A stretch of 64,000 nucleotides of DNA from Actinomycetota bacterium (GTDB taxonomy: Bacteria > Actinomycetota > Geothermincolia > Fen-727 > Anoxymicrobiaceae), in NCBI GenBank assembly GCA_018831265.1, contig JAHJCO010000059.1, positions 76,708-140,707 on the forward strand, written 5' to 3'. A program made the position numbers and the translations under genes. Of this stretch, positions 26,530 to 50,390 are shown piece after piece. The notes beneath the pieces are model-generated. The model made no database searches. It was not told where the DNA came from and worked only from the letters and a program-made list of their open reading frames with translations. Each line of letters opens with the position of its first letter. Position 1 is the stretch's first letter.

Positions 26530-26822
26530 GGGGTCAGGCTCAATTCAATTTCAGCGATCAAGCCGCACGACCTGTATGGTGTGAATTGAATTGTGCCTGA
26601 CCCCTAGCCTAGTCAACTTGCGGGCCGCTCGAAGTATTCAATTTCAGCGATCAAGCCGCACGACCTGTATGGTGTGAATTGAATTGTGCCTGACCCCTAG
26701 CCTAGTCAACTTGCGGGCCGCTCGAAGTATTCAATTTCAGCGATCAAGCCGCCCGATCTGTATGGTGTGAATCGAATTGTGCCTGACCCCTAGCTGAGTC
26801 ACTTGTGGCCGCTCAAGGTATT
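26530..26822. repeat. Tandem array (~93-bp unit, ~3 copies) of a MITE-like element with GGGGTCAGGC(T/A)CAATTCAATT inverted arms
   Basis: Units starting ~26581, 26674, 26767 are near-identical, including the internal segment. Confidence 0.85.
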
Positions 26823-30002: not shown

Positions 30003-30018
30003 CTCGCCGCCTCCGTCC

Positions 30019-30093
30019 GGTGAAAAAAAACCTCTGAAAAAAAACCTCAGACCATTTCTTTCACCGAAAGAATACCTCAAACTGTTTTTCACC
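30019..30093. repeat. AT-rich palindromic repeat, family 3
   Basis: ggtgaaaaaaaacctctgaaaaaaaacctcagaccatttctttcaccgaaagaatacctcaaactgtttttcacc. Confidence 0.7.
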
Positions 30094-30222
30094 GCCGACG
30101 ATCAGTCAAAAGTCCACCCCTTCTGAAGATGGAGGCTCGAGGTTTCTTCTTTGAGTGTCCGTCCAGGATGAGCGGGCACGTGTTTGTGGTATAAGGAGAC
30201 GTTTTGTAACGGGCGGTGGTAG

Positions 30223-31155
30223 ATGGCGAGAGACTTCAAGGGCTGGTTCAACGAGACCCGCAGGGCGGAGCTGATGCTGATAGGCATCACCGTCATCTGG
30301 GGGCTTACCTTCGCGCTGGTCAAGCGGTCGCTGGACGACATAGCGCCGTTCACCTTCATGGCCTGGCGGTTCATGCTGGCCGCGGCGATCATGCTCGTCC
30401 TCTGCGCGCGGAAGTGGAAGGGCCTGGACCGCCGCATCCTGGTCGCCGGCCTGCTGCTGGGGGCGCTGCTGTACGGCTCCTACGCGTTCCAGACCTTCGG
30501 GCTGCAGTACACCTCCGCGGGCAACGCCGGCTTCATCACCGGCCTCTTCATAGTATTCACGCCGCTGCTCTCCGTGCTGTTCCTGAGGCACAGGCCCGGC
30601 GCCAAGTCCCTTCTGGCGGTGGGCATAGCGCTGTGCGGGCTGTGGGTGCTCTCCGTGCAACCGAACATGGGCATCAACAAGGGGGACGCGCTGGTACTGG
30701 CGTGCGCCTTCACCTACTCGGTGCACATCATCCTGCTGGACAGGTACGTGAAGGTGCACGACCTGGCGCTGCTCACCTTAATCCAGATGGTGGTGCTGGC
30801 GGTGGCCAACACCGGCTCGGGTCTGGTGTTCGAGGAGTTCATCCTCCCCCCCAACGCCTTCGTCTGGATGACGGTCATCATCTGCGGGGCGCTGGCCAGC
30901 GCGCTGGCGTTCTACGTGCAGGGGCACGCCCAGAAGGTGCTGACCCCGGTTCGGACCTCGATGGTGCTCATCATGGAGCCGGTCTTCTCCGTGGTGTTCG
31001 GCATCATCATCCTGGGGGAGTCGCTTTCCTGGCGGGGCGCCCTCGGCAGCGGGCTGATCTTCGCCGGGATGCTGCTTACCGAGCTGCCTGACGAAATTCG
31101 CATCGGGGTCAGACGCCGATGCGAAAAAGTCAATCCTTCAGAGCCCGGTAAATAG
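30223..31155 (+). CDS. DMT-superfamily (EamA) transporter
   Basis: 10 TM helices, two EamA repeats; last ~20 codons run into REP hairpin 31097-31125. Confidence 0.8.
   Translation: MARDFKGWFNETRRAELMLIGITVIWGLTFALVKRSLDDIAPFTFMAWRFMLAAAIMLVLCARKWKGLDRRILVAGLLLGALLYGSYAFQTFGLQYTSAGNAGFITGLFIVFTPLLSVLFLRHRPGAKSLLAVGIALCGLWVLSVQPNMGINKGDALVLACAFTYSVHIILLDRYVKVHDLALLTLIQMVVLAVANTGSGLVFEEFILPPNAFVWMTVIICGALASALAFYVQGHAQKVLTPVRTSMVLIMEPVFSVVFGIIILGESLSWRGALGSGLIFAGMLLTELPDEIRIGVRRRCEKVNPSEPGK
31097..31125. repeat. REP-like hairpin TTCGCATCGG-GGTCAGAC-GCCGATGCGAA
   Basis: Identical to 23418-23446; abuts the 3' end of the RAYT gene. Confidence 0.8.
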
Positions 31156-31861
31156 TCGCAGGATGGACACCGAGGTGCCCGGCCACTCCGGCGACGCTGA
31201 AGCCGCGATCTCTAATGGCACTCCTGATAACGTCGTTCCTCGCGCCGGCGTCCTTGGTGCCCTTGAGGAGTGAGTTCAGTATCAGCGCCTGGTCTTTCAT
31301 GCTGGAGGCTTCGTGAAGCCCCGCGAGAACGTACCCGGTGAATTCTTCACGCGCCCTGGAGGGATTGTCTGAGAAGCATCCGAGAACGAAAGAGGTCGTC
31401 AGGAAGTCGGGTTCAATACAGAGGCCGGCCGTGGCTGAGTAACTGCTCCACCTCCAGTTCTCCGGGGACCCAGCCATGCCTTCCTTGACTGGATTGAGAA
31501 AGATATAGCGGAACAAGGCAAACAGGTGACGCTCGTTCTCCACTAGCGGAGAAAGAAACCTGCCCTGAACGACATGTCCAATCCTCTTGTGCTTCCATGC
31601 GAAGTACCGGCAGTAGTTTCCGTTCAGCTGCTGCATTCCCTCAGAAAGGTTGGCCTCGGGCGTTTCGATCAGAATGTGATAGTGGTTTCCCATCAGGCAG
31701 TAAGCATGGCAGTTCCAACGGAAATCGCGGATCGTGCCAGCCAGTCCCTTGATGAACACGCGACGATCTCCGTTCGTCAGAAAGATCTTCTGTTTATCGT
31801 TCCCTCGGGACATGACGTGGTAGAAAGCCCCTGGGAACAGCTGTCGCGGCTGTCGCCCCAT
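31130..31861 (-). CDS. REP-associated tyrosine transposase (RAYT; IS200/IS605 Y1 HUH family) with C-terminal HTH
   Basis: HUH motif 'GNHYHILIE'; Y1 transposase fold length; C-terminal 'LGVHPATIYRALKD' HTH; flanked by palindromes (31097-31125 and gtgtgcaagttgcacac at ~31890). Confidence 0.85.
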   Translation of the reverse strand: MGRQPRQLFPGAFYHVMSRGNDKQKIFLTNGDRRVFIKGLAGTIRDFRWNCHAYCLMGNHYHILIETPEANLSEGMQQLNGNYCRYFAWKHKRIGHVVQGRFLSPLVENERHLFALFRYIFLNPVKEGMAGSPENWRWSSYSATAGLCIEPDFLTTSFVLGCFSDNPSRAREEFTGYVLAGLHEASSMKDQALILNSLLKGTKDAGARNDVIRSAIRDRGFSVAGVAGHLGVHPATIYRALKD

Positions 31862-31973
31862 GAAGCAATTCTAGCAAGCAAAACAAGCGTGTGCAAGTTG
31901 CACACCTGAAAAGGTCACGAATAATACTCCCGCCGTGTTTTTTTCGCAACGGCGTCTGGCACCATTGCGAAAG

Positions 31974-33143
31974 TCAGATCCAGCCGCGTTTCGCCATGAA
32001 GTTCACCAGCGGACGGCCCAGGCCCGACTTGTACAGGAGCGGAAGTCGCTTCACCGAGGCCTCGTCGTTGCCGCCCTTCATCAGGGGGGCGAGCTTGCCG
32101 AACCCCAGACCCCGGTCCCGGGCCAGCAGGGCCGTCATGTGCATCTGTCCCTCCGGCAGGACGAGGTCACTCGGCCTGGATATAAGGCTCATCGCCCCGC
32201 TGGGGCAGGTGGAGACGCACAGCCCGCAGCCGATGCACCTGTCGGGGTCCACCCGCATCGACCCCTCCCGCGAGACCAGCGCCTCCATCTGGCAGCGCTC
32301 GACGCAGGTCTCGCACTCGTTGCAGAGGTCCGAGTCGATGCGGGCCTGGAAGTTGGTGTAGACGGCCTCGGCCGGCCTCTCGTGCATCTTGAGGAGCTTG
32401 AGCACCCCGCAGCAGCACGAGCAGCAGCAGCATATGTTGATTATCTCCTTGCAGTTGGTCGGTGCGAGCACCAGGCCCGCCTCCTCCGCCCGATCGAGTA
32501 TCTTCAGGGCTTCGTCGACGTCGATCTTCCTGCCTTTGCCGTAGTCGACGTAGTACCGGGCGCCGAGCCCGAAGATGAGGCAGGACTCCAGCGGCTTGTC
32601 GCAGCCCCTGTCCACGAGGTGCTGGGCCTTGCGGCAGATGCAGTCGGCGACCGCGACCTCCGTCTGCCCCTTTACCATCTCACGGACCATGTCGTAGCTG
32701 CCTATGGTCGTGGTCGCCTCGACGGCCGAGTTCACCGGCACCACCCGGAACTGCTTGACCACCGTGTCCGCGAAGTACGGGTCTATCTCCTCCGCGAGCT
32801 CGACGTACTCCCTGTCGATGCTGTCCACGTGGAACTCGTGGATCCCCACAACGAACTGGGCCGCCTGGTAGAACCTGTCCTTCCCGCTCCTCAGGCTCAG
32901 TATGAGGCCCTTGCGCGCCATGGACTCGAGCTTCTGCTCCGCTTCGGCCGCGGGGATTCCCAGGCGCTTCGCGATAGCGCCGGCGGGCTCGGGGAACTGG
33001 CGGAGCTTCATGGTCAGCTCCGCCTCCTCCGGGGTGAAGAACTTCCGGAGTATATCCAGCTCTTTTCCGGTCGGGGTCTCGGGGTAGCCCCCCGGGAGCC
33101 TGTCGAGGAACTCTCGCAGTTCGACGTAAACGGTCTCTGCCAT
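31974..33143 (-). CDS. 4Fe-4S dicluster-domain protein with poly-Cys run (CCCCSCCC) and N-terminal wHTH-like region
   Basis: 'CNECETCVERC' and 'CIGCGLCVSTCP' ferredoxin motifs; 'NICCCCSCCCG'; start MAETVYVEL; the track's extension to 33272 is unsupported. Confidence 0.65.
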   Translation of the reverse strand: MAETVYVELREFLDRLPGGYPETPTGKELDILRKFFTPEEAELTMKLRQFPEPAGAIAKRLGIPAAEAEQKLESMARKGLILSLRSGKDRFYQAAQFVVGIHEFHVDSIDREYVELAEEIDPYFADTVVKQFRVVPVNSAVEATTTIGSYDMVREMVKGQTEVAVADCICRKAQHLVDRGCDKPLESCLIFGLGARYYVDYGKGRKIDVDEALKILDRAEEAGLVLAPTNCKEIINICCCCSCCCGVLKLLKMHERPAEAVYTNFQARIDSDLCNECETCVERCQMEALVSREGSMRVDPDRCIGCGLCVSTCPSGAMSLISRPSDLVLPEGQMHMTALLARDRGLGFGKLAPLMKGGNDEASVKRLPLLYKSGLGRPLVNFMAKRGWI

Positions 33144-33238: not shown

Positions 33239-33993
33239 TGCGACGCAACGGTAAGTACACATCGATAGCCATAGCGCTCCTCCTGGCCGCGGCGCTCGCG
33301 GCGGGCGGCTGCGGGGAGCAACCTTCACTGGCCTACGATTCTTCCGGCGGGAACGTGGTGGTGCAGGTGGAATCCGGCGGGGGGCTGGCGCCCTTCTACC
33401 TCGACACCGTGCCTTCCTTCCGCGCCTTCGGTGACGGTCGGGTCGTGAAAGCGGCGGACGATACCAGGAACAACAGCCTGCTACTGGAAGGAACGCTGGG
33501 GGACGGCGGGGTGGAGGGCCTGCTCGAGAGCATCGAGAAGGCGGGGTTTTTCGACCTGAAGGATTCCTACCGCGACGACAGGGTGATGGACGGGGTCACC
33601 GTGAGCGTCACCGTTTCGCTGAAAGACGGGAGGAAGAAGGTAGACGTCTACATGACCGAGGTGCCGGAGTTCGCCGCCACGCTGAAGGCCGTCAATGGAT
33701 TCCCGGTCACGGGCGAACACCCCTACGTCCCTGAAGAGGGGTATCTCTACGTCACCCGGCAGAACGAGCCGCCGAAGGACCCTCGGGTCCCACCGGACGA
33801 CATCGCCGCCCTGATACCCGGGGTACAGATACTCGAGCCGGCCGATTCCGCCAACGAGCCCGTGGTGGTCCCGGGCGGGGAATTCGTGAAGATAAAGGAG
33901 TGGGAGGTGACGCAGAAGTATTCGGGCCTGGACGTGCTGTCCGGAGGGACATGGTTCAAGGTCTACCCGGTGTACGAGAAGCGCGAGTACTAG
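33239..33993 (+). CDS. Lipoprotein, function unknown
   Basis: Signal peptide with lipobox 'LAAGGC'. Confidence 0.55.
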
Positions 33994-34070
33994 CGCGTAC
34001 GGACGCCCCGCGTGTCACTGGGACGGGCGATAATGATCGGTATGAAGAGACTCACGTCCCGGGAGTGTCT

Positions 34071-37000
34071 GTGAACTTCCAGAGCAACACCCTGGTCGAG
34101 GCCATCGCCTCGCTGTGCGCGGAAGAGCCGTTGAAGCCCAAGATCATAATCGCGCCCTCCAACCGGGCCGGGAACCAGTGGCTCGAGCGCGTCGCCATGT
34201 CGGGCCGTCCGGTCCTGAACGCCGGCTCCCGGACGCTCCGGGGGCTCGCCCTCGAGCTGTCCGCTCCCCTGCTGGTCGAGCGGGGGCTGCAGCTGGTGGG
34301 AGGCATCCGCGCACAGGTTCTGATGGACAGGGCCTTCGCCCGTATCTCCCCGAAAGAGCCTTACCTGTCTCGTCTCGAGCCGGGGCCGGGCCTGGTCCGC
34401 ACCCTGCTCGGAGCCGTGAGGGACCTTCGCCTCGCCGGGCTGGATGCGGACGCCGTCGACGAGCGCGCGTTCGAGGTGAGGTCCAAGGGCGCCGAGGTGA
34501 AGGCGCTCCTCGAGGCGTTCGAATCCGTGCTGGCGGAGGGCGGCTTAACCGACTACGCAGGGTGTCTCCGCCTTGCCGTCGAGCGCGTCACCTCCGATAG
34601 AGGGCTCCCGCTCGACTCCCTTGTGGCGATCCCCGCGGACCTCGAGGAGCGCCTGGCGGGCCTCGAACGCTCTCTCTGGTCGGCGATGCCTGAGAGCAAC
34701 CGTCGCATACTCGAGGTGGACCTGCCCGGCGACCCGAGCACCGACTCCTCGCGTCGTTACATGCTGAGCTTCGCCCTGCACCCCCAGACCGCGCCCGACC
34801 CCGGGCCGGACGGCGGCGGAGTCAGGATGTTCCGCGCGGTGGGCGAGGTCAACGAGGTCCGAGAGGTCTTCAGGCGGGTCGTCGAGGAGGGCCTGCCCTT
34901 CGACGACGTCGAGGTGTTGTACACCGAACCGGCAACGTACCTCCCGCTCCTGTTCGAGCTGGCCTCCCGCCAGGCGGCCGACGGGTCCGATGAGCTCCCG
35001 GTGACCTTCCTGGAGGGCGTCCCCACCCGGTACTCGAGGCCCGGAAGGGCACTGGCCGGGTGGCTGGAGTGGGTGAGGGGGGGCGATCTCCCCCAGGGTA
35101 CGCTGGTCCGCATGGTCCACGACGGGTTGCTCGAGATACCCGCGGTCGAGGGCGGCGATCTGAGCTTCGCGAGGCTGGGCGCGATACTACGGTCGGTGGC
35201 GATCGGGGCCGGGCGCGAGAGGTACCTGGCCTCGCTGGACTCGGAGGCCCGCGCCCTGACCTCGCAGATCGTGGGGCTGGACGAGGCGGAGGAGGAAGGG
35301 CGCGACGCGCGGAGACGTATCGGCCTCTCGGAGCGCCTGGAGGGCCTGGGCGCGCTGCGCGAGCTCATCGGCGGCCTCCTCGAGGTAGTCCCTTCCACCG
35401 GTGGGCAGGCGGAGGCGCTCAGCTCCGCGTCGCTGTTCCTCGAGAGGTACGCGAGGCACTCGGGGAAGTTCGACGAGTACAGCAGGGTGATACTGCTCGA
35501 CTCGGTGGCCGAGATCGAGCGGTGCCTCCAGGACGGCGAGGTTGCCGGCTTCGAACCCTGGAGCTGGCTCGATGAGGTGATCTCCTCGATCAGCGTCGAG
35601 GGATCGGGGCCTGCCCCGGGCCGGCTGCACACGGCCCCTGTGGACAAAGGCGGTCATTCCGGCCGCGGGCACACGTTCATCGTCGGCTTCGACGAGGCCC
35701 GGTTCCCCGCCGCGGGCAGGCAGGACCCCGTTCTGCTGGATGGCGAGAGAGAGCGGCTGTCGGACGATCTGCTCACGGGAGAAGCGAGGCTCACGCGCGA
35801 GCTGGAGCAGCTGATGCTGCTGTTCGCCCGGTTGAGGGGCGAGGTGACCTTGAGCTACTGCTGCCGGAGCCTCATCGACGATCGCGAGCTGTTCCCGAGC
35901 CCGGTGCTGCTGTCCGCCTACCGCGTGCTGGAGAAGCGCGACGGCGACCAGCAGGACCTGAACGCATACTGCGGGGACCCGGTCTCTTTCGCGCCGGCGT
36001 CGCCGGAGAGCGCCATCGACACCACCGAGTGGTGGCTTTCTCTCGCGTGCGGTCGGACCGACCGGCTGGTCCCGACCGGACTGGTCGTGGCGAGTTTCGG
36101 CCACCTGGGGCGCGGGATGAGGGCGCGCGAGATGAGGGAGAGCCCGGAGTTCACCGAGTACGACGGCTACGTGCCCGAGGCCGCCTCGGAGTGCGATCCC
36201 GCGCGCGAGGGGGCGAGGCCGCTCTCGGCGTCCGCCCTCGAGGAGCTCGCGAGGTGCCCGCTGGAGTATTTCCTCCACCGTGTCCTGCGCATAGATCCGC
36301 TCGAGGAGTACGAGATCGACCCCAACGAGTGGCTGGACGCCAGGCAGGTCGGCCACTTTCTCCACGGCTGCTTCAGGATCTTCCTCGAGCGCCTGGACGA
36401 GCGGGGCGAGCGCCCGAGCCGGGACGCCCACCTCGCCGAGCTGCGGCGCCTGTTCGACGATGAGCTCGCATACTGGCGGCGCGTGGTGCCTCCACACAAC
36501 GAGGCTTCCTACAAGGCCCAGGCCAGGATGCTCGAGCGCGCCGCCTGCATCTTCCTGACGGAGGAGGAGCTGCACTGCGTCGACAGGCGGCCTGCGTACT
36601 TCGAGGTCTCGGTGGGTCGGATGCCCGACCTGCCCGGGAGGCGAGGCAACGAGATAGACACCGCCGAGCCCGTGCTTGTCTCCCTGCCGAAGGGGATGGT
36701 CTTCCGCGCCCACGGGCAGATGGACAGGGTGGACGAGCTCCCTGGCGCACCCGAGGGCCGTCGCTTCGAGGTCTGCGACTACAAGTCGGGCGGCGCCGGC
36801 CGGTACGACGTCAACGACCCGTTCGCCTGCGGCCGTCACGTGCAGAACATCCTGTATACGCTGCTCCTGCAGAGCAGGCTCGACGAGCTCTTTCCGGGCG
36901 CGCGCGTAGAGGGTTTCAGCTACTACTTCCCCAGCCTGTACGGAAGGGGTGAGCGGGTGGGATGGACCATGGATGAGCTCGAGGCGGGGGAGACGGTCCT

Positions 37001-37220
37001 CGCGGATCTCTGTGCGATGCTCGCAACCGGCTGCTTCCCGTTCACCATCAACCCGAACCTCGACCTGACCTACAGCGATTTCGTCTTCGCGTACGGCGAT
37101 GTCGCCGATGCCGCCAGGCAGGCGAGAGTCAAGGTAGATAACCTCGCCAACGAGGCGCTGCTGCCTTACCGCGAGCTGCGCGCCCGCGAGCTGGACGAGG
37201 AACAGGAAGAGGGCGAATGA
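34071..37220 (+). CDS. addB: AddB/RexB-like PD-(D/E)XK nuclease subunit (no Walker A)
   Basis: GTG start with GGGAG RBS; C-terminal RecB-type nuclease motif 'FEVCDYKSG'; ~1050 aa; immediately upstream of and overlapping the AddA-like gene. Confidence 0.7.
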   Translation: MNFQSNTLVEAIASLCAEEPLKPKIIIAPSNRAGNQWLERVAMSGRPVLNAGSRTLRGLALELSAPLLVERGLQLVGGIRAQVLMDRAFARISPKEPYLSRLEPGPGLVRTLLGAVRDLRLAGLDADAVDERAFEVRSKGAEVKALLEAFESVLAEGGLTDYAGCLRLAVERVTSDRGLPLDSLVAIPADLEERLAGLERSLWSAMPESNRRILEVDLPGDPSTDSSRRYMLSFALHPQTAPDPGPDGGGVRMFRAVGEVNEVREVFRRVVEEGLPFDDVEVLYTEPATYLPLLFELASRQAADGSDELPVTFLEGVPTRYSRPGRALAGWLEWVRGGDLPQGTLVRMVHDGLLEIPAVEGGDLSFARLGAILRSVAIGAGRERYLASLDSEARALTSQIVGLDEAEEEGRDARRRIGLSERLEGLGALRELIGGLLEVVPSTGGQAEALSSASLFLERYARHSGKFDEYSRVILLDSVAEIERCLQDGEVAGFEPWSWLDEVISSISVEGSGPAPGRLHTAPVDKGGHSGRGHTFIVGFDEARFPAAGRQDPVLLDGERERLSDDLLTGEARLTRELEQLMLLFARLRGEVTLSYCCRSLIDDRELFPSPVLLSAYRVLEKRDGDQQDLNAYCGDPVSFAPASPESAIDTTEWWLSLACGRTDRLVPTGLVVASFGHLGRGMRAREMRESPEFTEYDGYVPEAASECDPAREGARPLSASALEELARCPLEYFLHRVLRIDPLEEYEIDPNEWLDARQVGHFLHGCFRIFLERLDERGERPSRDAHLAELRRLFDDELAYWRRVVPPHNEASYKAQARMLERAACIFLTEEELHCVDRRPAYFEVSVGRMPDLPGRRGNEIDTAEPVLVSLPKGMVFRAHGQMDRVDELPGAPEGRRFEVCDYKSGGAGRYDVNDPFACGRHVQNILYTLLLQSRLDELFPGARVEGFSYYFPSLYGRGERVGWTMDELEAGETVLADLCAMLATGCFPFTINPNLDLTYSDFVFAYGDVADAARQARVKVDNLANEALLPYRELRARELDEEQEEGE

Positions 37221-40200
37221 CCGTGCAGCCCGCGAGCCAGCCACCCCCGGACCAGGACCAGCGCGACCTGATCGTCAGCGCGCTCGACCGCAACGTTGTG
37301 GTCGAAGCCGCGGCCGGAACTGGGAAGACCACCAGCATGGTGGACCGCATGGTGGCGCTGCTTCGCACGGGTGCGTGCGACGATATCCGGAGGATGGCGG
37401 CGGTGACGTTTACCCGGAAGGCCGCCTCCGAGCTGCGCGACCGCTTCAGACTTGCCCTGGAGAAGGCCGTGCGCGGGGCCGCCGGCGACGAGAGGGGGCG
37501 CCTTGCCGGGGCGCTGGACAGCATAGACCAGTGCTTCGTGGGTACGATCCACTCGTTCTGCGGCCGGCTGCTCCGCGAGCGGCCCATAGAGGCGGGGGTG
37601 GACCTCGCCTTCGAGGAGCTCGACGAGGACGCCGATATGCGCCTGCGCCAGGAGGCATGGGCGGCATATGCCGAGTCGGTGATAGGGCTCGGCCCGGGGA
37701 GCGTGATCGACGAGCTCGACGACCTCAACCTGGACCTGTCCGACCTCGCCGACACCTTCTACAGGTTCGCCGAGTACCCGGACGTGGACGACTGGCCCCT
37801 GCCTCCCGAGAGCGAAATGCTCGAGGACCTCGACGAGGCGGCAGTAGCGGTGAAGCGTTTCACGGAGCGCATGAGGAAGCTCGCCGACAGGCTGCCCAGG
37901 GAGTGCGGCTCGGACCGGCTGATGCCGCGCTACTCGAAGATGCCGAGGGTGGTATCGCACTACGAGGACCTGAGCGAACGCGCTTCCATGCTCGAGCTCA
38001 TCGACATGTTCTTCGACAAGCGCTCGGGCGCGGTGCTAAAGGAGTGGGTGCAGAAGGGCGGGTTTACCCAGGAGGAGGCGCGCTCGGAGCGCGAGGCCTG
38101 GGACGCTTTCCGCGAGGAGTTCGCCGCGCCGCTCGCCGAGGCGTGGCGGGAGCTTCGCTACCGCACGGTCATGAAGGTGATAACCGAGGCCGGGGCCGTC
38201 TACGATCGCATGAGGGCGGAGCGCGGCCAGCTCGACTTCCAGGACCTGCTGATGAAGGCGGCCGGCCTGCTCAAGGGGAGCCCTCACGTGCGCTCCTACT
38301 TCGCAGGGCGCTACTCGCACCTGCTGGTCGACGAGTTCCAGGACACCGATCCCATACAGGCGGAGGTCATGCTGCTGCTTACCGCTACCGACCCCCGCCA
38401 GGACGACTGGCGCCTGTGCGTGCCCCGCGGCGGGTCGCTGTTCGTTGTGGGGGACCCCAAGCAGTCGATATACCGGTTCCGCAGGGCAGACATCGTTACC
38501 TACAACAGGGTGAAGCGGATGATCCTGGAGGGCGACGGCGGGAAGGGCCGCGGCATCGAGGTCCGGCTGTTCGCCAACTTCCGCACGTCGGCGGCCGTCA
38601 TCCAGTGGATAGACGAAGTCTTCGCGCCCAAGGGTGACTGCACGGACAAGTCCGGCAGGCTGGTTTGCTTCCCGGAGGCGGCCTCCGAGCAGTCTCCGGC
38701 CTACGTCCGGCTGGAGGCCGGCCGGAGCGAGTCCCTTCAGGGCGAGCTGGGAGGAGTGTTCCAGTTGACCATACCCTCCGACGAGATCCTGCTCACCTCC
38801 CACCTCGTGGAGGGCGGACCGCCGACCGCGCAGGAGGCCGCGGTCCTGGCGCGCCGGTACACCAGGAGCGAGCTTGCGGCGTCCTACGAGGCGGACCTCA
38901 TCGCCCGCTACATCCGGTGGGCGATAGACGATCGCGTCACCGTTCCCCGAAGCGAGAAGGAGCTCGAGGATATCCACAGGCGCATGCCCTCGTGCGAGGA
39001 CCCGGCCGCGCTTCGGGCCGAGGACTTCCTGATCATCACGCGAAACAAGACCCACCTGAGCACCTACGGCCAGGCACTCCAGAGGTACGGCATCCCGCAC
39101 CGGGTGACGGGGGGCACTGCCCTGAACGAGGTGGAGGAGCTCCGGCTGCTGCTGACCTGCCTCCGTGCGGTGGACAGGGTCGATGATCCCGTGGCGCTGG
39201 TCGGGGCACTGCGGAGCGAGCTGTTCGGCATCAGTGACGCGGCGCTATACCGGTTCAGGAGGAACGGCGGCCGATTCAACTACAACGGCCCGGTTCCCGA
39301 GGGGCTGCCCCCCGGGGACGAGGAGGCCATCACCGACGCCTTCGACAGGCTGCGCCGGTACCGCGGCTGGGTGAAGACCATGCCACCGCTGGCCGCCTTC
39401 GAGAAGGTCGTCTCGGACCTGGGGCTGATGGTGCTGGCCGCGACCCGCGACGGCGGAGACGTCCAGGCGGGCAGCCTCGGCAAGGCGCTCGAGTTGCTCA
39501 GGGGTGACCAGCGCGCGCACTGGAGCACCTCCCACCTGGTCGATTTCCTCGCCGACCTGGTCGAGGGCGAGTTCAGCTACGACGGGGTGTCGGCACGGTC
39601 ACATGAGGTCGGGGCGGTGAGGGTGATGAACCTCCACAAGGCCAAGGGGCTGGAGTCCACGGTGGTGTTCCTCGCCGACGGCTCCGGCGAGCCCAGGTCG
39701 GGCCCGGAGATCGTCATCGACCGCGGCGGCGACCGGACGATCGGCTACATCGGAGTGTTCGGCCCGAGGTGGGGCGCCTGGTACAGGCCCCTGCTGGCGG
39801 CGCCGGGCGGCTGGGCGGACCGCCAGGCGGTCGAGAAGGAGTTCGAGGCCGCCGAGAGGCTGAGGTTGCGCTACGTGGCGGCCACCAGGGCGGGCTCGGC
39901 GATGATCGTGTGCGAGCGCGAGGACGGCAGGGCCAACGGCTCCAATCCCTGGAAGTATTTCAGGGATCACCTCGCCGGGGTGCCCGACCTGCCTGACCCG
40001 GGCCCGAGGAGCGCACCATCACGGGAGGCGCTCGACATCTCGGTGGAGGACGTGACGAAGGCTTCAGAGGAGGCGGCCGGCAGGATGCGGCGCGCAGAAG
40101 GTCCCACCTACGCGAGGCTCGCGGCCAAAGAGTACGCGCTCCGGGGAAAAGATTTTGCAAAAGGGTCAGGCACTTTTGCACCATCAACCACGGGCGGGCC

Positions 40201-40684
40201 GGAGTATGGCATCAACTGGGGCACCGCCATGCACATGCTGCTGGAGCTGGCTATGAGCCGGCCGGGCTTCGATGTCGAGGCCTGGGCGGAGAGGGTGCTG
40301 GGGGAGAACGAGATCGATCCGGGTGAGACGCCGCGGGCGGTGGAGACCGTCCGGGCGGTCACCGGATCGGCGTTGTGGGAAAGAGCCCTTGCCTCCGACC
40401 TGTGCCTGACGGAGGTCCCGTTCCACATGCTCCTCGGGGATGCGGACATCCCCACCACGATGAACGGGGCCATGGACCTGGCTTTCCGCGAGGAGGGGGG
40501 TTGGGTCATAGTGGACTACAAGACCGACAGGATAAGCGCATCGAGGAGCGAGCGGGCCCTGGCGGACGAGTACGCCCCGCAGCTCGAGCTGTACGGCCGG
40601 GCCTGGGCGGGGTGCACCGGCGAGACCGTCAAGGAGACCGGCCTGTTCTTCGTGGACAACCGTACATACCACAGGATCAGATGA
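37217..40684 (+). CDS. addA: AddA/RecB-like UvrD-family helicase with C-terminal PD-(D/E)XK nuclease
   Basis: Walker A 'AAGTGKTT', 'TFTRKAASELRDR'; C-terminal 'GWVIVDYKTDRI'. Confidence 0.85.
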   Translation: MTVQPASQPPPDQDQRDLIVSALDRNVVVEAAAGTGKTTSMVDRMVALLRTGACDDIRRMAAVTFTRKAASELRDRFRLALEKAVRGAAGDERGRLAGALDSIDQCFVGTIHSFCGRLLRERPIEAGVDLAFEELDEDADMRLRQEAWAAYAESVIGLGPGSVIDELDDLNLDLSDLADTFYRFAEYPDVDDWPLPPESEMLEDLDEAAVAVKRFTERMRKLADRLPRECGSDRLMPRYSKMPRVVSHYEDLSERASMLELIDMFFDKRSGAVLKEWVQKGGFTQEEARSEREAWDAFREEFAAPLAEAWRELRYRTVMKVITEAGAVYDRMRAERGQLDFQDLLMKAAGLLKGSPHVRSYFAGRYSHLLVDEFQDTDPIQAEVMLLLTATDPRQDDWRLCVPRGGSLFVVGDPKQSIYRFRRADIVTYNRVKRMILEGDGGKGRGIEVRLFANFRTSAAVIQWIDEVFAPKGDCTDKSGRLVCFPEAASEQSPAYVRLEAGRSESLQGELGGVFQLTIPSDEILLTSHLVEGGPPTAQEAAVLARRYTRSELAASYEADLIARYIRWAIDDRVTVPRSEKELEDIHRRMPSCEDPAALRAEDFLIITRNKTHLSTYGQALQRYGIPHRVTGGTALNEVEELRLLLTCLRAVDRVDDPVALVGALRSELFGISDAALYRFRRNGGRFNYNGPVPEGLPPGDEEAITDAFDRLRRYRGWVKTMPPLAAFEKVVSDLGLMVLAATRDGGDVQAGSLGKALELLRGDQRAHWSTSHLVDFLADLVEGEFSYDGVSARSHEVGAVRVMNLHKAKGLESTVVFLADGSGEPRSGPEIVIDRGGDRTIGYIGVFGPRWGAWYRPLLAAPGGWADRQAVEKEFEAAERLRLRYVAATRAGSAMIVCEREDGRANGSNPWKYFRDHLAGVPDLPDPGPRSAPSREALDISVEDVTKASEEAAGRMRRAEGPTYARLAAKEYALRGKDFAKGSGTFAPSTTGGPEYGINWGTAMHMLLELAMSRPGFDVEAWAERVLGENEIDPGETPRAVETVRAVTGSALWERALASDLCLTEVPFHMLLGDADIPTTMNGAMDLAFREEGGWVIVDYKTDRISASRSERALADEYAPQLELYGRAWAGCTGETVKETGLFFVDNRTYHRIR
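40156..40180. repeat. REP hairpin (TGCAAAAG-GGTCAGGCA-CTTTTGCA) embedded in frame in the AddA-like CDS
   Basis: Encodes ...DFAKGSGTFAP... in the linker before the nuclease domain. Confidence 0.75.
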
Positions 40685-41514
40685 GCGAGCACATGCTTCT
40701 GCCCGAGGTCGACTTCTGCGCCTTCGACCTGGAGACGACGGGGCTGTCCAACTTCAGCCGGATAGTGGAGGTCGGGGCGGTCCGGTTCCGCCTCGAGGCG
40801 GTGCACGACCGTTTCAGCGAGCTGGTCCACCCCGGCAGGAGCATCCCCGAGGTGGTCATCGGCATACACGGAATCACCGACACCATGGTCGCGGGGGCCG
40901 CGGCGGCGCCGGAGGTTATCGATCGGTTCTTCGAGTTCGCGGACGGGTGCGTTCTAGTCGCGCACAACGCGGCGTTCGACTCCGGGATAATGGCCACCGA
41001 GTTGCACAGGGCCGGGCTGGAGCCGCCCGAGCCCCTCATCCTCGACACCATCGCGCTGGCCAGGAGGTTCCTGCCGAGGCTGCCGAGCTACGGGCTGGGC
41101 GCCCTCTCGCGCGATCTGGGCATCGGGCGGCCCCGCAAGCACCGCGCCCTCGAGGACGCGGAGGCCTGCAGGAGGATCTTCGAGAGAACCGTGCTCTCGG
41201 TCCCGGAGTGGCAAGGCCGGCCACTGGACCTGCTGGCCGATGCCGCCGGCGGCTGCACCCTGCGCTACCGGCCGCAGGCGCCCTCCGATCTGCCCCCCGG
41301 CATGGAGGCCATCCTCGCCGCCCTCGAGAGGCGCGGTGACGTGGTGGTAGTCTACAGGGGGGGCAGCAAGGGCACCGTGCCCAGGCGACTGTCGCCGGTA
41401 TCGGTGTACTCGGCGGGGGGTCACTGCTACATGGAGGCCCGCTGCCACGTGGACAACGTGACCAAGTCTTTCAGGGTCGACCGCATCGCCAGCGTAGAGC
41501 TCTGGGAGGACTGA
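40681..41514 (+). CDS. DEDDh 3'-5' exonuclease (DnaQ-like) fused to a C-terminal WYL-like domain
   Basis: Exo I 'FDLETTG', Exo II 'LVAHNAAFD', Exo III 'HRALEDA'; C-terminal 'VVVVYRGGSKG...RLSPVSVY..HCYMEARC...SFRVDRI' WYL pattern; ATGA overlap with the AddA-like gene. Confidence 0.7.
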   Translation: MSEHMLLPEVDFCAFDLETTGLSNFSRIVEVGAVRFRLEAVHDRFSELVHPGRSIPEVVIGIHGITDTMVAGAAAAPEVIDRFFEFADGCVLVAHNAAFDSGIMATELHRAGLEPPEPLILDTIALARRFLPRLPSYGLGALSRDLGIGRPRKHRALEDAEACRRIFERTVLSVPEWQGRPLDLLADAAGGCTLRYRPQAPSDLPPGMEAILAALERRGDVVVVYRGGSKGTVPRRLSPVSVYSAGGHCYMEARCHVDNVTKSFRVDRIASVELWED

Positions 41515-41521
41515 GCTTCCC

Positions 41522-43204
41522 ATGGCCAGGATGATCCCCGAGATAGAGGTCGGCCGGTATCCCCACGGCGAGGGACTCCTCTACCGCTGGCTCAAGGGGC
41601 TGCCCGACGATTACCGCGTCTTCCACGGCGTCCACCTGCTCCGGCAGTCCGGCGGCTCGCTGAGGCGCGGAGAGGCCGACTTCGTGGTGCTCCACAAGGA
41701 CCTGGGCTTCCTGGTGATAGAGGTCAAGGGCGGCAAGGTCACCTGCCAGCCGGGTAGGGGCCGGTGGACCTCGACGGACTACCGGGGCGAGGAGCATCCG
41801 ATCAAGGACCCGTTCCTGCAGGCTGAACGCAACGTCAACGCCATCGTCGAGCGCATCAGGGACTCAGGGGTGTTCGGCCCCGGCCCGCTGAAGACCCTGC
41901 CCGTCACGGTGGGCTACTGCGTAGCCTTCCCCGACGGGGTGGCGCAGCAGAAGAACCTCCCGCTGCACGTGGTGCCGGAGGTCGTCATAGACAGCCGGGA
42001 CGCGGCCCGGATGGCCGCGCGGATCGAGGGGCTGTTCGGCGCCTGGCGAAAGAAGAGGCCCGGATCGCGCGGCTTCACCCCCCGGGAGTTCAACGACCTG
42101 TGCAACAAGGTCCTGCTCACCCGGTTCAACGTGACCGTGCCCCTGAGCGTGAGATTCGGGAGGGAGAAGGAGCGCTTCGAGTCCCTGACCGACGAGCAGT
42201 GCCGCATCCTGGAGACCGTCTCCGGCGGGAAGCGCGCCCTGTTCAGGGGATACGCGGGGACGGGCAAGACGCAGTTGCTGATGGAGAACGCCAGGCGCTT
42301 CGCCGCCGCCGCCGCCCGGGTACTGGTGGTCTGCTACAACCAGCCGCTCGCGGAACTCCTCTCACAGTGGGCCGCGAACGTCTGCGGAGCCGGAGGCGTA
42401 ACGGTCAGGCACTTCCACGGCCTCGCCGAGGAGTATGCCGGCGAGGCGGGTCTCGACTTCGATGTCCCGCCGGAGGACGAGCCGGACGCGCTGCAGGCCT
42501 TCTACGAGAGGGGATCGGCGGCCCTGCTGGAGGCGGCGCTTGCCGAGGCGCCCGGACGTTTCGATTGCGTGCTGGTGGACGAGGGCCAGGACTTCCACCT
42601 GGAGTGGCTGCGGGTGCTCTCGGAGCTGCTCGACCCGGCGGGGATGGACGTCTTCCACATCTTCTACGACGAGCAGCAGAACGTCTACGGCAAGGAGCTC
42701 GAGTTCCCCTTCGAGGCCGTGCCCTACGACCTGAGCTATCAGATGCGCAGCACCGCGAACGTCTGCGAGGTCGCCCGGAAGGCCGGCTCGGTCGATATCC
42801 GGTGCTTCCCAGACTGGGTCAAAGGTGCCCCCGTGAAGTACTTCCCCTACCGTGAACCGTCCGAGCAGGTCGCCCTGATCGAGAAGGTGGTCAGGGAGCT
42901 TCTCGACAAAGGCATCGACCCCTCACAGGTGATGGTGATCTCGTCACACCGCAGGGCCCGCTCCTGCCTGGCCGGGGTCAACCGACTGCAGGGGTACCCG
43001 CTGGTGGAGTACCGGCCCCCCGGCGAGGAGGACACCATCGCGTTCTCCAGCCTGCACCGCGCCAAGGGCCTCGAGTCGGACGTGGTGATCTTCTGTGACG
43101 TGGACGGCGGCGAGCCGTACTGCAGCCGCTCAAACCAGTACGTGGCGGTCTCGCGCGCCCGCCACCTGCTCTACATCATCCACCGCAGGGACTGGAAGCT
43201 TTGA
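41522..43204 (+). CDS. NERD-domain nuclease fused to SF1 (UvrD/DUF2075-like) helicase
   Basis: N-terminal NERD 'GEADFVVLHKDLGFLVIEVKG'; Walker A 'GYAGTGKTQ', Walker B 'VLVDEGQD'; C-terminal 'SLHRAKGLESDVVIF'. Confidence 0.75.
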   Translation: MARMIPEIEVGRYPHGEGLLYRWLKGLPDDYRVFHGVHLLRQSGGSLRRGEADFVVLHKDLGFLVIEVKGGKVTCQPGRGRWTSTDYRGEEHPIKDPFLQAERNVNAIVERIRDSGVFGPGPLKTLPVTVGYCVAFPDGVAQQKNLPLHVVPEVVIDSRDAARMAARIEGLFGAWRKKRPGSRGFTPREFNDLCNKVLLTRFNVTVPLSVRFGREKERFESLTDEQCRILETVSGGKRALFRGYAGTGKTQLLMENARRFAAAAARVLVVCYNQPLAELLSQWAANVCGAGGVTVRHFHGLAEEYAGEAGLDFDVPPEDEPDALQAFYERGSAALLEAALAEAPGRFDCVLVDEGQDFHLEWLRVLSELLDPAGMDVFHIFYDEQQNVYGKELEFPFEAVPYDLSYQMRSTANVCEVARKAGSVDIRCFPDWVKGAPVKYFPYREPSEQVALIEKVVRELLDKGIDPSQVMVISSHRRARSCLAGVNRLQGYPLVEYRPPGEEDTIAFSSLHRAKGLESDVVIFCDVDGGEPYCSRSNQYVAVSRARHLLYIIHRRDWKL

Positions 43205-43320: not shown

Positions 43321-44544
43321 TTAGAACCAGTCCGTCGTCCTGACGTTGGGCTGGTAGAGCATGCCGTAGAGGTCCATCGCGTAGCGGTCGGTCATGCCGG
43401 CGAGGTAGTCGCAGACCACGCGCTCGGCAGGCTCGCTCTCGAGGTCCTCCACCAGGGGAGCGGGGAGCATGTCCGGCTTGGAGGTGAAGGTCTCGTACAG
43501 GCCGCCTAGGATCTTCTCGCCCTTGAAGATCATCCGGCTGACGATCGGGTTCAGGTAGACCTCCTCCAGCATGGCGAGCGCGAAGGCGTGCACCTGGGAG
43601 TCTATGCCCGGCGAGAACGATACCAGCGGGTCGGGCAGCCCGCGCAGGGCCTCGGGGGTCCCCGCTCCCGCCCTGCTCATCCGCGCCACGGTCTCCCTCG
43701 CCACGTCGGTGATGAGGGCATTAATCATCCCGCTTATGGCCCGCATCCGCCCGACGTCCGTTCGGCTGGCGCCCAGGTCCCAGCCGGGGTCCTCGATGGA
43801 GTCGACCATCACCCGGGCGACCTGCGCGATGAGCGGCATCTCCGAGGCCCGCTCCCCGAGCCAGTCGGCGCTGACCAGCCCGATCCTGAGCGCGTCGTCC
43901 AGGTCGTGCGTGCACCAGGCGATGGTGTCGGCGACGTTGACCACCTGGCACTCGGCCGAGGGCTGCGGGTAGGCGGAGAACTCCTCGAGCACCGGCGGCT
44001 CGTCGAACAGCGTCCTGTGCCGCGCCAGCCCCTCGCGCGTCTCCCAGCAGAGGTTAAGGCCGCGGAACGACGGGTAGCAGCGCTCGAGCCAGTCGACCAC
44101 CCGCAGGCCGTGGAGGTTGTGGTCGAAGCCGCCGCCGTCCTTCATCAGCGCGTCCAGGGCGGTCTCACCGCCGTGCCCGAACGGGGGGTGCCCGATGTCG
44201 TGCACCAGGGCGATGGCCTCGGCCAGCGTCTCGTTGAGCCCGAGCATGCGCGCCAGCGAGCGGGATATCTGCATGACCTCAATGGTGTGGGTCATGCGGG
44301 TGCGGTAGAGGTCTCCCTCGTGGGTCACGAAGACCTGGGTCTTGTACTGGAGCTTGCGGAACGAGGAGGAGTACAGGATGCGGTCGCGGTCGAGCTGGAA
44401 GCGCGGGCGCTCCGGCTGGGGCGGCTCCTCGCACGCCCTGACCCGGCCGGCCTTCGCGGGCAGGTCGGTCCCCAGGGACGCCAGGGGCGACAGCTCCCCG
44501 CGCTCGCTGTCGTCGAAGTATGATGCGCCGCGCAGATCGACCAT
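43321..44544 (-). CDS. dgt: dGTPase-family HD phosphohydrolase
   Basis: HD motif 'HDIGHPPFGH'; dGTP triphosphohydrolase-like length and motifs. Confidence 0.85.
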   Translation of the reverse strand: MVDLRGASYFDDSERGELSPLASLGTDLPAKAGRVRACEEPPQPERPRFQLDRDRILYSSSFRKLQYKTQVFVTHEGDLYRTRMTHTIEVMQISRSLARMLGLNETLAEAIALVHDIGHPPFGHGGETALDALMKDGGGFDHNLHGLRVVDWLERCYPSFRGLNLCWETREGLARHRTLFDEPPVLEEFSAYPQPSAECQVVNVADTIAWCTHDLDDALRIGLVSADWLGERASEMPLIAQVARVMVDSIEDPGWDLGASRTDVGRMRAISGMINALITDVARETVARMSRAGAGTPEALRGLPDPLVSFSPGIDSQVHAFALAMLEEVYLNPIVSRMIFKGEKILGGLYETFTSKPDMLPAPLVEDLESEPAERVVCDYLAGMTDRYAMDLYGMLYQPNVRTTDWF

Positions 44545-44546
44545 GG

Positions 44547-45857
44547 TCAGCCCCGGTCCCGGCCTTCGGAGAAGTAGTTGATGAAGAACTGGGGGTTCAG
44601 CTCCGGCGCGAAGTAATGCTTGTGCTTTATCCAGACGAAACCGTCGCTCCGGGTGATCACCGCGACGTCGATGGGACCGCCCACCGACTCGGCGGCGAAA
44701 GACATCCTGGTCCTGAACGAGGTCAGGTTGACGAGCGACTCGGCGATCTCGGACAGCTCGTTCTTGGGCAGGCCCGCTATGACGTCTATGACCGGTATCA
44801 CGTACTTCTTGCGCCGGAACGCCGCGAGCTCCCTGGGTATCTCGGCGGCCCCTTTCCGGATCGAGTCCGCCCGCTTGCGGTAGTCCTCCTTGTCGCCGGC
44901 GTCCTTCAGCTCGCCGATGAGCCCCTCGACCAGCTCCCGGTAAGCGTCGAGCGCGACGCCATACCTGTTGAACACTGTATCGTTGTAGGCGGGCTCCGCG
45001 CCTTCCATGAATGCGTTCACCATCTCGCGGCGCGCGAAGGGGATAACGGCCGCCCGCGTGCCGGAGCCCGTGCCGGACACCCGGTCCTTCTTGAAACGAA
45101 GGTGGTCGCAGACCACGCCGCCCACCAGGAACTCGACCACGGTGGGGAAGATGTCCTTCTCGCCGAAGCCGGCCACCACCACGCCGGAGAGAGTGCCGAA
45201 CTGCGGTGCGGACGGGGACTTGATGAAGATATCGAGAGCCAGCCTGTTGAGCCTGCCCGAGTACGACGGGGAGGCGGGCCAGCGCCGGAACACCTTCCTG
45301 CGGATCTCCCTGATGACCTTCCCGTACTCGCCCTCGAGTCGCTCCGGGAGGTCGGCCGGCGTGCCTGGAAGCTCCTCGGCCTTGTCCCAGACCTTCAGTA
45401 TCGCGCGAAAGGCCTTGTTTGCCGCCTCCCGCTTCTGCTCGTCGGTGGCCGCGGGGTTCTCCTCGACCAGCGAGTTGACCGCGTCACGGAGGACGTTCTT
45501 CACTAAAACGAAGCAGTCAGTGACCGTGGCGGCGAAGTAATCGCGCTGCTCGGACTCGGGGTACAGGCGCATCTCGCCGGAGAGAAAGCCCATGAAATCG
45601 TCGGCGTACTCCTCGAGCGTGTCGAAACACCCCGCGCCGAGCCTCTCCTGGTAGAGGGACACCACGGTCTCCCAGGGCACTCCCATGTGGTTGGCGCCGC
45701 CGAACATCATCACCCCGACCGGGCACTTCCTGGAAAGCGTGAATATCTTGTTGGCGGAGGTGATGACCTTCTCGTCGCGGCCCTTCTGTATGGTCACGGC
45801 GCTATCGGCGGCCAGCGCCACCGCTTCCCTGTTCATAACCACTATCTCGGCGGTCAT
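44547..45857 (-). CDS. Proteasome beta-subunit-type Ntn hydrolase homologue with large insertions
   Basis: 'TAEIVVMNREAVALAADSAVT' matches proteasome beta N-terminus (Thr1); 'GSGTGSGT' and C-terminal 'GGPIDVAVITRSDGFV' match beta-subunit motifs; 436 aa vs ~200; start ATG at 45857 with GGAGG RBS (track start 45926 lies in repeat DNA). Confidence 0.55.
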   Translation of the reverse strand: MTAEIVVMNREAVALAADSAVTIQKGRDEKVITSANKIFTLSRKCPVGVMMFGGANHMGVPWETVVSLYQERLGAGCFDTLEEYADDFMGFLSGEMRLYPESEQRDYFAATVTDCFVLVKNVLRDAVNSLVEENPAATDEQKREAANKAFRAILKVWDKAEELPGTPADLPERLEGEYGKVIREIRRKVFRRWPASPSYSGRLNRLALDIFIKSPSAPQFGTLSGVVVAGFGEKDIFPTVVEFLVGGVVCDHLRFKKDRVSGTGSGTRAAVIPFARREMVNAFMEGAEPAYNDTVFNRYGVALDAYRELVEGLIGELKDAGDKEDYRKRADSIRKGAAEIPRELAAFRRKKYVIPVIDVIAGLPKNELSEIAESLVNLTSFRTRMSFAAESVGGPIDVAVITRSDGFVWIKHKHYFAPELNPQFFINYFSEGRDRG

Positions 45858-50313: not shown

Positions 50314-50390
50314 TGGAGCCCCGGGCGGGACTCGAACCCGCGACCTACGGATTAGGAATCCGTCGCTCCATCCGTCTGAGCTACCGGGGC
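50314..50390 (-). tRNA. tRNA-Arg (anticodon CCU)
   Basis: Cloverleaf: acceptor GCCCCGG/CCGGGGC, D-stem GCTC/GAGC, anticodon stem ACGGA/TCCGT with loop TTCCTAA, T-arm GCGGG-TTCGAGT-CCCGC, encoded CCA. Confidence 0.85.

Follow-up and report, generated by a model that had tools for sequence, protein, structure and literature searches.

What does a 3′–5′ exonuclease gain from a WYL domain, a domain best known from transcription factors? The question is raised by a gene at positions 40681–41514 (+ strand) of a 64,000-nucleotide stretch of an Actinomycetota bacterium genome (GenBank assembly GCA_018831265.1, contig JAHJCO010000059.1, positions 76,708 to 140,707), the whole of which is referred to here as the window and supplies the coordinates used below. 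The open reading frame (ORF), which we call ExoWYL, runs uninterrupted for 277 codons, ends in TGA, and has an AGGA placed 5 nt upstream of its ATG. A first-pass annotation made from the sequence alone had described the product as a DnaQ-like exonuclease fused to a WYL-like domain, had called such a fusion uncommon, and had suggested a ligand-gated nuclease in a defense context. The gene does encode a DEDDh exonuclease fused to a genuine WYL domain, and our analysis indicates that the protein is probably a 3′–5′ DNA exonuclease whose WYL domain acts as an accessory module binding single-stranded DNA (ssDNA), as in the Pif1-WYL helicases. An identical protein (P0001) is encoded in GenBank assembly GCA_018822775.1, a metagenome-assembled genome labeled "Actinobacteria bacterium," where it is named "WYL domain-containing protein."

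The exonuclease domain occupies residues 14–167 (40720–41181, +), matching Pfam RNase_T (PF00929, E = 1.9e-30) and passing the cut-off of the NCBIfam model for the dnaq subfamily domain (TIGR00573, 95.8 bits versus 71.5). The three motifs behind the annotation's N-terminal assignment were all located, FDLETTG at residues 15–21, HNAAFD at 95–100, and HRALEDA at 154–160. The five catalytic residues, D16 and E18 of the Exo I DxE motif (codons within 40726–40734), D100 of Exo II (40978–40980), and H154 and D159 of the Exo III Hx4D motif (41140–41142 and 41155–41157), are invariant in 41 of 41 homologs in the family alignment, so that the DEDDh assignment is borne out. In a full-length AlphaFold2 (AF2) model built from this 41-sequence alignment (mean predicted local distance difference test score [pLDDT] 89.6, predicted template modeling score 0.77), most of residues 1–180 form an alpha/beta exonuclease domain with pLDDT above 90. 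The N-terminal domain dominates the matches when the whole model is compared with the Protein Data Bank (PDB) using Foldseek: the list is headed by the PolC exonuclease domain, DnaQ domains, the Staphylococcus aureus DinG-N exonuclease, Pol III epsilon, and ExoX, with PolC, DnaQ, DinG-N, and epsilon aligning over an RNase H-like fold at E values of 1e-11 to 1e-14 and a root-mean-square deviation of about 2–2.5 Å. RNase T and TREX rank below these DNA exonucleases. The strongest matches of the N-terminal domain are again PolC, DnaQ, DinG, and ExoX, together with actinobacterial DEDD proteins of the PRK07883 type (E = 1e-47 to 1e-33 for the group), and the PHROG match is to "DNA polymerase exonuclease subunit" (1.6e-45). 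ExoWYL is thus predicted to be, most likely, a catalytically competent 3′→5′ exonuclease of the DnaQ/PolC type, and these relationships point to DNA rather than RNA as its substrate.

Relatives of this exonuclease carry a variety of other domains. Pfam annotation of homologs identified BRCT, RQC, and GIY-YIG domains as targeting modules on sister exonucleases, which fits a theme of a core nuclease joined to a targeting module. ExoWYL shares its core and the five catalytic residues with S. aureus DinG-N, the DEDD-GIY-YIG protein PRK07883, and the DEDDh-BRCT and RQC-DEDDh proteins, each of which adds a targeting or partner module; its own module is the WYL domain, and the equivalog models of those fusions score far under their cut-offs against it (e.g., 161.9 versus 495). 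A full-length match to the PADLOC candidate system PDC-S48 was not found, the exonuclease domain alone aligning with profile positions 5–172 of 411 and 17–210 of 512. Many family members are annotated by JGI as "DNA polymerase III epsilon subunit," and this annotation, along with the TIGR00573 match, would accord with a variant epsilon proofreader in which a WYL tail replaces the polymerase-binding tail. We regard this as highly improbable. The epsilon equivalog models fall far under their cut-offs (TIGR01406, 79.7 versus 222.7; NF004316, 80.8 versus 196; NF004963, 87.9 versus 245), the C terminus forms a WYL barrel and lacks a tail of the epsilon type, replication genes adjoin the gene in none of the lineages examined, and some 24 full-length homologs among 185,579 species representatives, a lower bound, are too sparse for an essential part of the replisome.

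The C-terminal WYL domain spans residues 209–274 (41305–41502, +) and matches Pfam WYL (PF13280) with E = 2.2e-11, its 44 bits exceeding the 21.8 set as gathering score; the last 87 amino acids submitted alone score 47.5 bits (E = 1.8e-12). All four sequence patterns cited by the annotation for this half were found, VVVVYRGG at residues 221–228, RLSPVSVY at 236–243, HCYMEARC at 248–255, and SFRVDRI at 263–269. In the full-length model, residues 208–274 form one helix and five strands, and the same elements appear when the C-terminal 75 amino acids are modeled alone (pLDDT 91.8), giving the SH3-like β-barrel for which the annotation had proposed an AlphaFold check, here a five-stranded barrel of the Sm-like kind. 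When the isolated model was compared with the PDB by Foldseek, the top 30 matches were all WYL domains, and Sm and Hfq folds appeared from rank 32. Solved WYL domains were matched at TMq 0.80–0.89, including those of BrxR (7qfz, 0.88), CapW (7tb5), ssDNA-bound DriD (7tzv), and PafBC (6sj9 and 9fnd). A further match, at TMq 0.67–0.74, was to 6oaw, deposited as "a CRISPR Cas-related protein," which we take to be the ssRNA-binding Cas13d accessory protein WYL1. A profile of the family's C-terminal region searched against PDB sequences found PafBC (4.8e-17), whose second WYL domain is nearest in sequence among the solved structures, then PafC (8e-12) and BrxR (3e-8) and, more weakly, a Pif1-type helicase (8bnv, 5.7e-8), DriD (2e-7), and CapW (5e-4). 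By Pfam match, family profile, and the fold of the isolated domain, the C-terminal region is therefore a separate and genuine WYL domain; it neither fails to match WYL models nor folds into the exonuclease, the two outcomes that would have told against the annotation.

Two features set the ExoWYL architecture apart from that of WYL transcription factors. No helix-turn-helix (HTH) family was detected in Pfam or NCBIfam scans of ExoWYL, whose N terminus is the exonuclease, and no WCX or dimerization domain follows the WYL domain, the last strand of which ends at residue 274 of 277. The two domains are joined by a linker (residues 168–208; 41182–41304, +) in which AF2 places short helices at 175–179 and 182–189, followed by a stretch, residues 190–210, with pLDDT of 59–67 and low conservation in the family alignment.

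The residues that the family conserves in the WYL domain are informative about its ligand. Among the 41 aligned members, Y225 and an aromatic F/Y264 are present in all; P239, A253, and C255 in 40; D267, K/R262, and R265 in 39; R/K268 in 38; and Y250 in 35, with Phe in three more. The basic positions R/K230, R235, K/R262, R265, and R/K268, together with C255, reproduce the published groove pattern of four basic residues plus a cysteine (PMC4012209). Judged from the alignment, the intact catalytic and groove residues are demonstrably under purifying selection. The ssDNA contacts of DriD have been published (PMC9186387), and they align with ExoWYL as Y168 with Y225, R178 with R235, Y192 with Y250, R204 with K262, W206 with F264, and R207 with R265. 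In PafC, R201 and R204 are essential for ssDNA binding by PafBC, mutation of which abolishes binding (PMC11804915), and these two align with R265 and R268. The codons of the putative ssDNA-contact residues lie at 41353–41355 (Y225), 41428–41430 (Y250), 41464–41466 (K262), 41473–41475 (R265), and 41482–41484 (R268), all on the + strand, and R235, C255, and F264 are further candidates. Because the conserved WYL residues correspond to the ssDNA contacts of DriD and PafBC, the likely ligand of the WYL domain is ssDNA, which is to say the enzyme's own substrate.

An intact DNA-type exonuclease, conserved ssDNA groove residues, and the precedent of the helicase TePif1 together lead us to propose that the WYL domain tethers the strand on which the exonuclease acts. 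The WYL groove would hold the 5′-ward part of the single strand while its 3′ end enters the two-metal exonuclease site, and such tethering would help the enzyme to capture its substrate and to act processively, and could render activity dependent on an ssDNA stretch. The WYL ligand and the enzyme substrate would then be the same molecule, with the WYL domain serving as an accessory that binds substrate and not as the sensor of some other signal. The corresponding WYL residues of DriD and PafBC bind ssDNA without base specificity. In TePif1, the only enzyme-WYL fusion to have been studied, the WYL domain has an accessory part in ssDNA binding, increasing the affinity for ssDNA and coupling ATPase activity to unwinding (10.1101/163188), and a model of DdPif1 provides a further precedent for a WYL domain on an enzyme, other Pif1 proteins having none (PMC9964779). 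Like ExoWYL, the Pif1-WYL proteins TePif1, DdPif1, and SsPif1 are ssDNA-acting enzymes with a terminal WYL domain and neither HTH nor WCX, but their catalytic partner is an SF1B helicase rather than a DEDDh exonuclease, and DdPif1 lacks the two tyrosines (Y168 and Y192 in DriD) that the ExoWYL family conserves (PMC9964779). PafBC, DriD, CapW, and BrxR share with ExoWYL the WYL fold and the Tyr, Arg, and aromatic residues that contact ssDNA, whereas they possess a winged HTH and a WCX or dimerization domain, both absent from ExoWYL, and their output is transcription rather than nuclease action. The characterized WYL proteins in the literature that we examined are transcription factors (PafBC, DriD, CapW, and BrxR) and Pif1 helicases. 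An exonuclease-WYL protein would offer a simple system in which to ask whether a WYL domain on an enzyme is a substrate tether or an allosteric switch.

Could the substrate be RNA instead? In this alternative, ExoWYL would be an exoribonuclease trimming or degrading RNA 3′ ends, its Sm-like WYL barrel binding single-stranded RNA (ssRNA) in the manner of Hfq or WYL1. The Pfam name RNase_T, a sub-threshold Pfam match to the Rv2179c-like exoribonuclease family (25.8 versus 27 bits), the description of the fused domain as a "3′→5′ exoRNase" in an earlier survey (PMC4012209), the presence of 6oaw, Sm, and Hfq folds among the structural matches of the WYL model, and the RNase T, ERI, and ISG20-type folds in the whole-model Foldseek list are all compatible with it. 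We nevertheless consider it unlikely, given that the DNA exonucleases named above provide the strongest N-terminal matches, that the WYL domain finds its best matches in two ssDNA binders, PafBC and DriD, the latter preferring ssDNA over ssRNA (PMC9186387), and that the operon partners of ExoWYL are DNA helicase-nucleases.

Those partners are encoded on either side of ExoWYL, which is the third of four tightly packed + strand genes. The first (33900–37220, +; NCBI start about 34071) encodes an AddB-like PD-(D/E)XK nuclease subunit recognized by Pfam PDDEXK_1 (5.9e-22) and by weak matches to addB/rexB NCBIfam models. The second (37217–40684, +) encodes an AddA-like protein of 1155 aa combining a UvrD helicase (Pfam UvrD-helicase, 4e-50) with a PD-(D/E)XK nuclease domain (PDDEXK_1), for which the NCBIfam addA models reach 212–225 bits, under their cut-offs. 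The fourth (41522–43204, +) encodes a 560-aa protein with a NERD nuclease-like domain (Pfam NERD, 1.9e-12) and a superfamily 1 (SF1) helicase domain (UvrD_C_2, 1.1e-8). ATGA stop/start overlaps join the AddB-like to the AddA-like gene and the latter to ExoWYL (40681–40684), only 7 nt separate ExoWYL from the NERD-SF1 helicase gene, and the GGGAGGA Shine–Dalgarno sequence of the helicase gene lies inside the end of ExoWYL. A scan for promoters and terminators around the operon gave nothing above the shuffled expectation. Convergent with the operon is a gene for an HD-domain dGTP triphosphohydrolase (dGTPase; 43321–44544, −), which scores 363.8 against NF002326 (cut-off 390) and 260.6 against TIGR01353 (cut-off 152). 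In Bacillus subtilis, the addB-addA-sbcD-sbcC operon likewise places AddAB before another pair that includes a nuclease and acts on DNA ends; the window has a DEDDh-WYL exonuclease with a NERD-SF1 helicase in place of SbcCD.

How stable is this arrangement? We compared the loci of five relatives with proteins 41–46% identical to ExoWYL: P0004, annotated as Candidatus Geothermincolia, P0009, P0013, P0015, and P0016. In all five, the exonuclease gene is immediately upstream of the NERD helicase gene with a convergent dGTPase gene behind. The AddB- and AddA-like genes lie just beyond the dGTPase gene in the loci of P0004, P0009, and P0013, the AddA-like gene being at most 4 kb from the ExoWYL homolog in loci L084, L086, and L087; at the P0015 locus, the next gene past the dGTPase is incomplete and unannotated, and addAB is absent from the P0016 locus. 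The relatives thus share the gene set of the window in another order, with the exonuclease/NERD-helicase pair split from addAB by the convergent dGTPase gene. Across them, identity to the window proteins is 62–64% for the helicase, 65–68% for the dGTPase, which is syntenic in L084, L086, L087, and L173, and 41–49% for AddA and AddB. Altogether, the exonuclease adjoins the NERD helicase in six WYL-bearing loci and in one locus where the WYL domain is missing. The protein at this last locus, P0019 (206 aa; L175 8001–8621, +), is 49% identical to ExoWYL over the exonuclease domain, is encoded 23 nt upstream of a NERD helicase gene, and is in the same syntenic block of LytR, HSP20, and Lon. That an ortholog without the WYL domain occupies the same slot shows the exonuclease-helicase pair to be what stays constant in this lineage, with the WYL domain as an add-on, and it argues that the WYL domain modulates function rather than enables it. 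This natural contrast of WYL-plus and WYL-minus orthologs makes the choice between tether and gate directly testable. Two other relatives, P0005 and P0017, have no NERD-helicase neighbor.

The gene order suggests a cellular role. In the Geothermincolia-like lineage, ExoWYL is cotranscribed with the NERD-SF1 helicase and lies beside genes for an AddAB-type helicase-nuclease and a dGTPase. Its probable task is to trim the 3′ single-stranded tails or flaps that end resection or unwinding leaves, which would place it in DNA end processing or repair. The conserved pairing with a NERD-SF1 helicase by addAB may point to a further module for end processing in an actinobacterial class that has received little study. 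The same arrangement invites a different account of the WYL domain as a module for protein–protein contact or oligomerization, docking the exonuclease to the NERD helicase or AddAB or dimerizing it. WYL domains are cited as protein-interaction modules in some regulators (PMC9964779), and both the tight translational coupling to AddA and the close spacing to the NERD helicase gene suggest complex formation; we think a docking role very unlikely, however, since the groove residues are kept across phyla where neither the NERD helicase nor AddAB adjoins and since P0019 pairs with the NERD helicase in the absence of a WYL domain, which is therefore dispensable for the gene-order association. We also hold it to be rather unlikely that ExoWYL is an auto-inhibited exonuclease, switched by ssDNA or a nucleotide at the WYL domain, that forms with the NERD-SF1 helicase an undescribed two-component DNA-degrading or end-processing machine genetically coupled to AddAB. 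If true, it would be the first WYL domain directly gating a nuclease rather than a transcription factor.

Several observations weigh against an ssDNA-tethering WYL domain that serves end processing. One DriD contact, R176, is lost, its counterpart in ExoWYL being V233, and R235 is an arginine in just 27 of 41 family members. Residues of the WCX or dimerization domain complete the ssDNA pocket of DriD and PafBC; ExoWYL has no such domain, and thus affinity or ligand could differ from those of the two regulators. Some WYL ligands are not ssDNA: one WYL regulator is reported to perceive cyclic di-GMP (PMC11880434), and WYL1 (6oaw) binds ssRNA. The low pLDDT of the linker bears on the tether geometry. 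As for the operon, the link to the NERD helicase and AddAB is confined to one lineage and so says little about the general role of the family, and the best PADLOC match of the NERD-SF1 helicase is to RTasNERD-Hel, a retron/DRT-associated model (2e-55), by which the helicase may have a role in defense.

The annotation had envisaged a defense-type, ligand-gated nuclease, in which the WYL domain senses a small molecule or second messenger, such as a cyclic or modified nucleotide, and gates the exonuclease as an effector of defense or stress responses. PADLOC labels its WYL models "associated_signaling," and ExoWYL matches them at about 5e-9; ligand sensing has been proposed for WYL-enzyme fusions (PMC4012209); the cyclic di-GMP regulator gives a reported second-messenger precedent (PMC11880434); and the neighboring NERD helicase and dGTPase match models in defense libraries, the dGTPase at 1.8e-91 in PADLOC. 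Against this, no cyclase, cas, CBASS, or BREX match was detected among the neighbors of ExoWYL in Pfam, NCBIfam, and PADLOC scans and gene calls, and no CRISPR-like array was detected in the 64-kb window. The dGTPase fits housekeeping models best and reaches 240.6 against the anti-phage NCBIfam dGTPase model, for which the cut-off is 400. Conservation in the groove falls on the ssDNA-contacting residues, and the slot is kept by an ortholog without a WYL domain. No match covering 80% of the ExoWYL protein was found in 72,556 plasmid records or in 50,697 phage records, and a full-length homolog was present in just one of 80 IMG/VR viral contigs kept from a full-alignment scan. Members from other phyla stand alone as single genes. 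A defense-type gated nuclease is therefore improbable in our estimation, and we favor the accessory ssDNA-binding module. The homolog on that one contig (L179 2935–3768, +; IMGVR_UViG_3300035661_000074) is 32% identical over residues 8–272.

The wider family was examined for a conserved context. When the window's AddB, AddA, NERD helicase, and dGTPase were searched by tblastn against 24 GTDB loci of the family, none was found, and a family-wide operon was accordingly rejected. Clustering of the ORFs within 6 kb of the gene in 34 family loci returned lineage-specific synteny alone, with TPR, ThiF, MoxR, PGK, CAP, and DUF6580 proteins, and no conserved defense neighbor was seen in these 34 loci. 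In other phyla, the gene occurs singly beside unrelated, mostly metabolic genes, e.g., argR/argG. A defense island, suggested by the PADLOC matches of the dGTPase and NERD helicase, was rejected as the main explanation of the locus given the fit of the dGTPase to housekeeping models and also because both genes are 62–68% conserved and keep their synteny amid core-genome genes (Lon, HSP20, and an ABC transporter) in distant relatives. One Planctomycetota locus has, 1.5 kb downstream of its exonuclease-WYL gene, an opposite-strand pair encoding an XPB-like helicase and a DUF790 (Bax1-like) nuclease (L088 9367–12641, −); this pair was not seen in other lineages.

Is the fusion as uncommon as the annotation had it? 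A word-indexed search returned about 45 clusters with both PF00929 and PF13280 among the best 120 (clustered at 90% identity), the proteins being 260–300 aa long. In an exhaustive hidden Markov model search of 1.84 billion representatives (50% identity), 12,318 matched the WYL profile at E ≤1e-3. Among the best 150 of these 12,318, 49 also carry a homologous exonuclease domain, and 64 are proteins of 600–850 aa that match WYL twice and so resemble the fused PafBC chain 6sj9 in length and layout. Full-length homologs are encoded by at least 24 of the 185,579 GTDB species representatives, and these genomes belong to the Planctomycetota, Thermodesulfobacteriota, Obscuribacterales/Melainabacteria, Spirochaetota, Bacteriovoracales, Oligoflexia, and Omnitrophota. 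Almost all matches in a scan of metagenome contigs with the single protein were exonuclease-only, the search pattern being the Exo II motif, and a word-indexed search with the WYL profile returned solely short WYL proteins and fragments of at most 144 aa.

The architecture is also not new. Makarova, Anantharaman, Grishin, Koonin, and Aravind listed in 2014 a fusion of WYL to a "3′→5′ exoRNase" (PMC4012209), and later work repeats "exonuclease" among WYL fusions (PMC9186387). The fusion of 2014 resembles ExoWYL in joining a DEDD-type 3′–5′ exonuclease to a WYL domain with the same basic and cysteine groove, but it appears in a supplementary file as an exoRNase with no member, context, or function given, whereas the ExoWYL nuclease looks DNA-directed and its family is chromosomal, with no defense association found. 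Full-text literature searches found no paper characterizing an exonuclease-WYL protein. The annotation's "uncommon" thus stands in the sense that the fusion is a minority WYL architecture (the 49 of the best 150 above), but it does not fit a populated, multiphylum family on record since 2014. The exonuclease-WYL fusion is an already catalogued and GenBank-annotated, uncharacterized, and widespread chromosomal family. It suggests no new principle; its value is as a well-defined candidate for biochemistry.

Some sequences recovered in the WYL searches stand apart from the full-length fusions. Stand-alone WYL proteins of 72–144 aa (P0121–P0160), among them a 78-aa protein from the Planctomycetota (P0121), resemble the WYL domain of ExoWYL with E values down to 4e-23; some are clearly fragments of the fusion at contig ends, and others may be free-standing WYL genes. 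The top match to the WYL profile among the 50%-identity representatives (E = 2e-37) is a protein of 3664 aa (P0170) whose score comes from 26 partial matches to profile positions 14–38, and it is probably a repetitive protein mimicking the "YxGGxxG" strand-loop rather than a WYL protein.

A few other features of the window deserve mention. Two nucleotides beyond the dGTPase start codon and on the same strand, a gene encodes a 436-aa protein (44547–45857, −; ORF to 45926) that matches phage family phrog_5990, of unknown function, end to end (E = 2e-104). No match to this protein was found in Pfam, NCBIfam, PADLOC, or PDB sequences, and the relatives examined do not encode it at that position. 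An IS200/IS605-type Y1 transposase gene (Pfam Y1_Tnp, NCBI gene call; about 31130–31861, −) lies between an EamA gene and the addAB operon and falls in the window's single low-GC stretch (30001–32000, 0.588 versus about 0.65); its proximity to addAB may relate to the rearranged gene order. A tandem repeat at 26543–26822 consists of three copies of a 93-bp unit (94% matches, score 490) and is not CRISPR-like because it has no spacers. The sole transfer RNA or Rfam match in the window is tRNA-Arg(CCT) at 50314–50390 (−).

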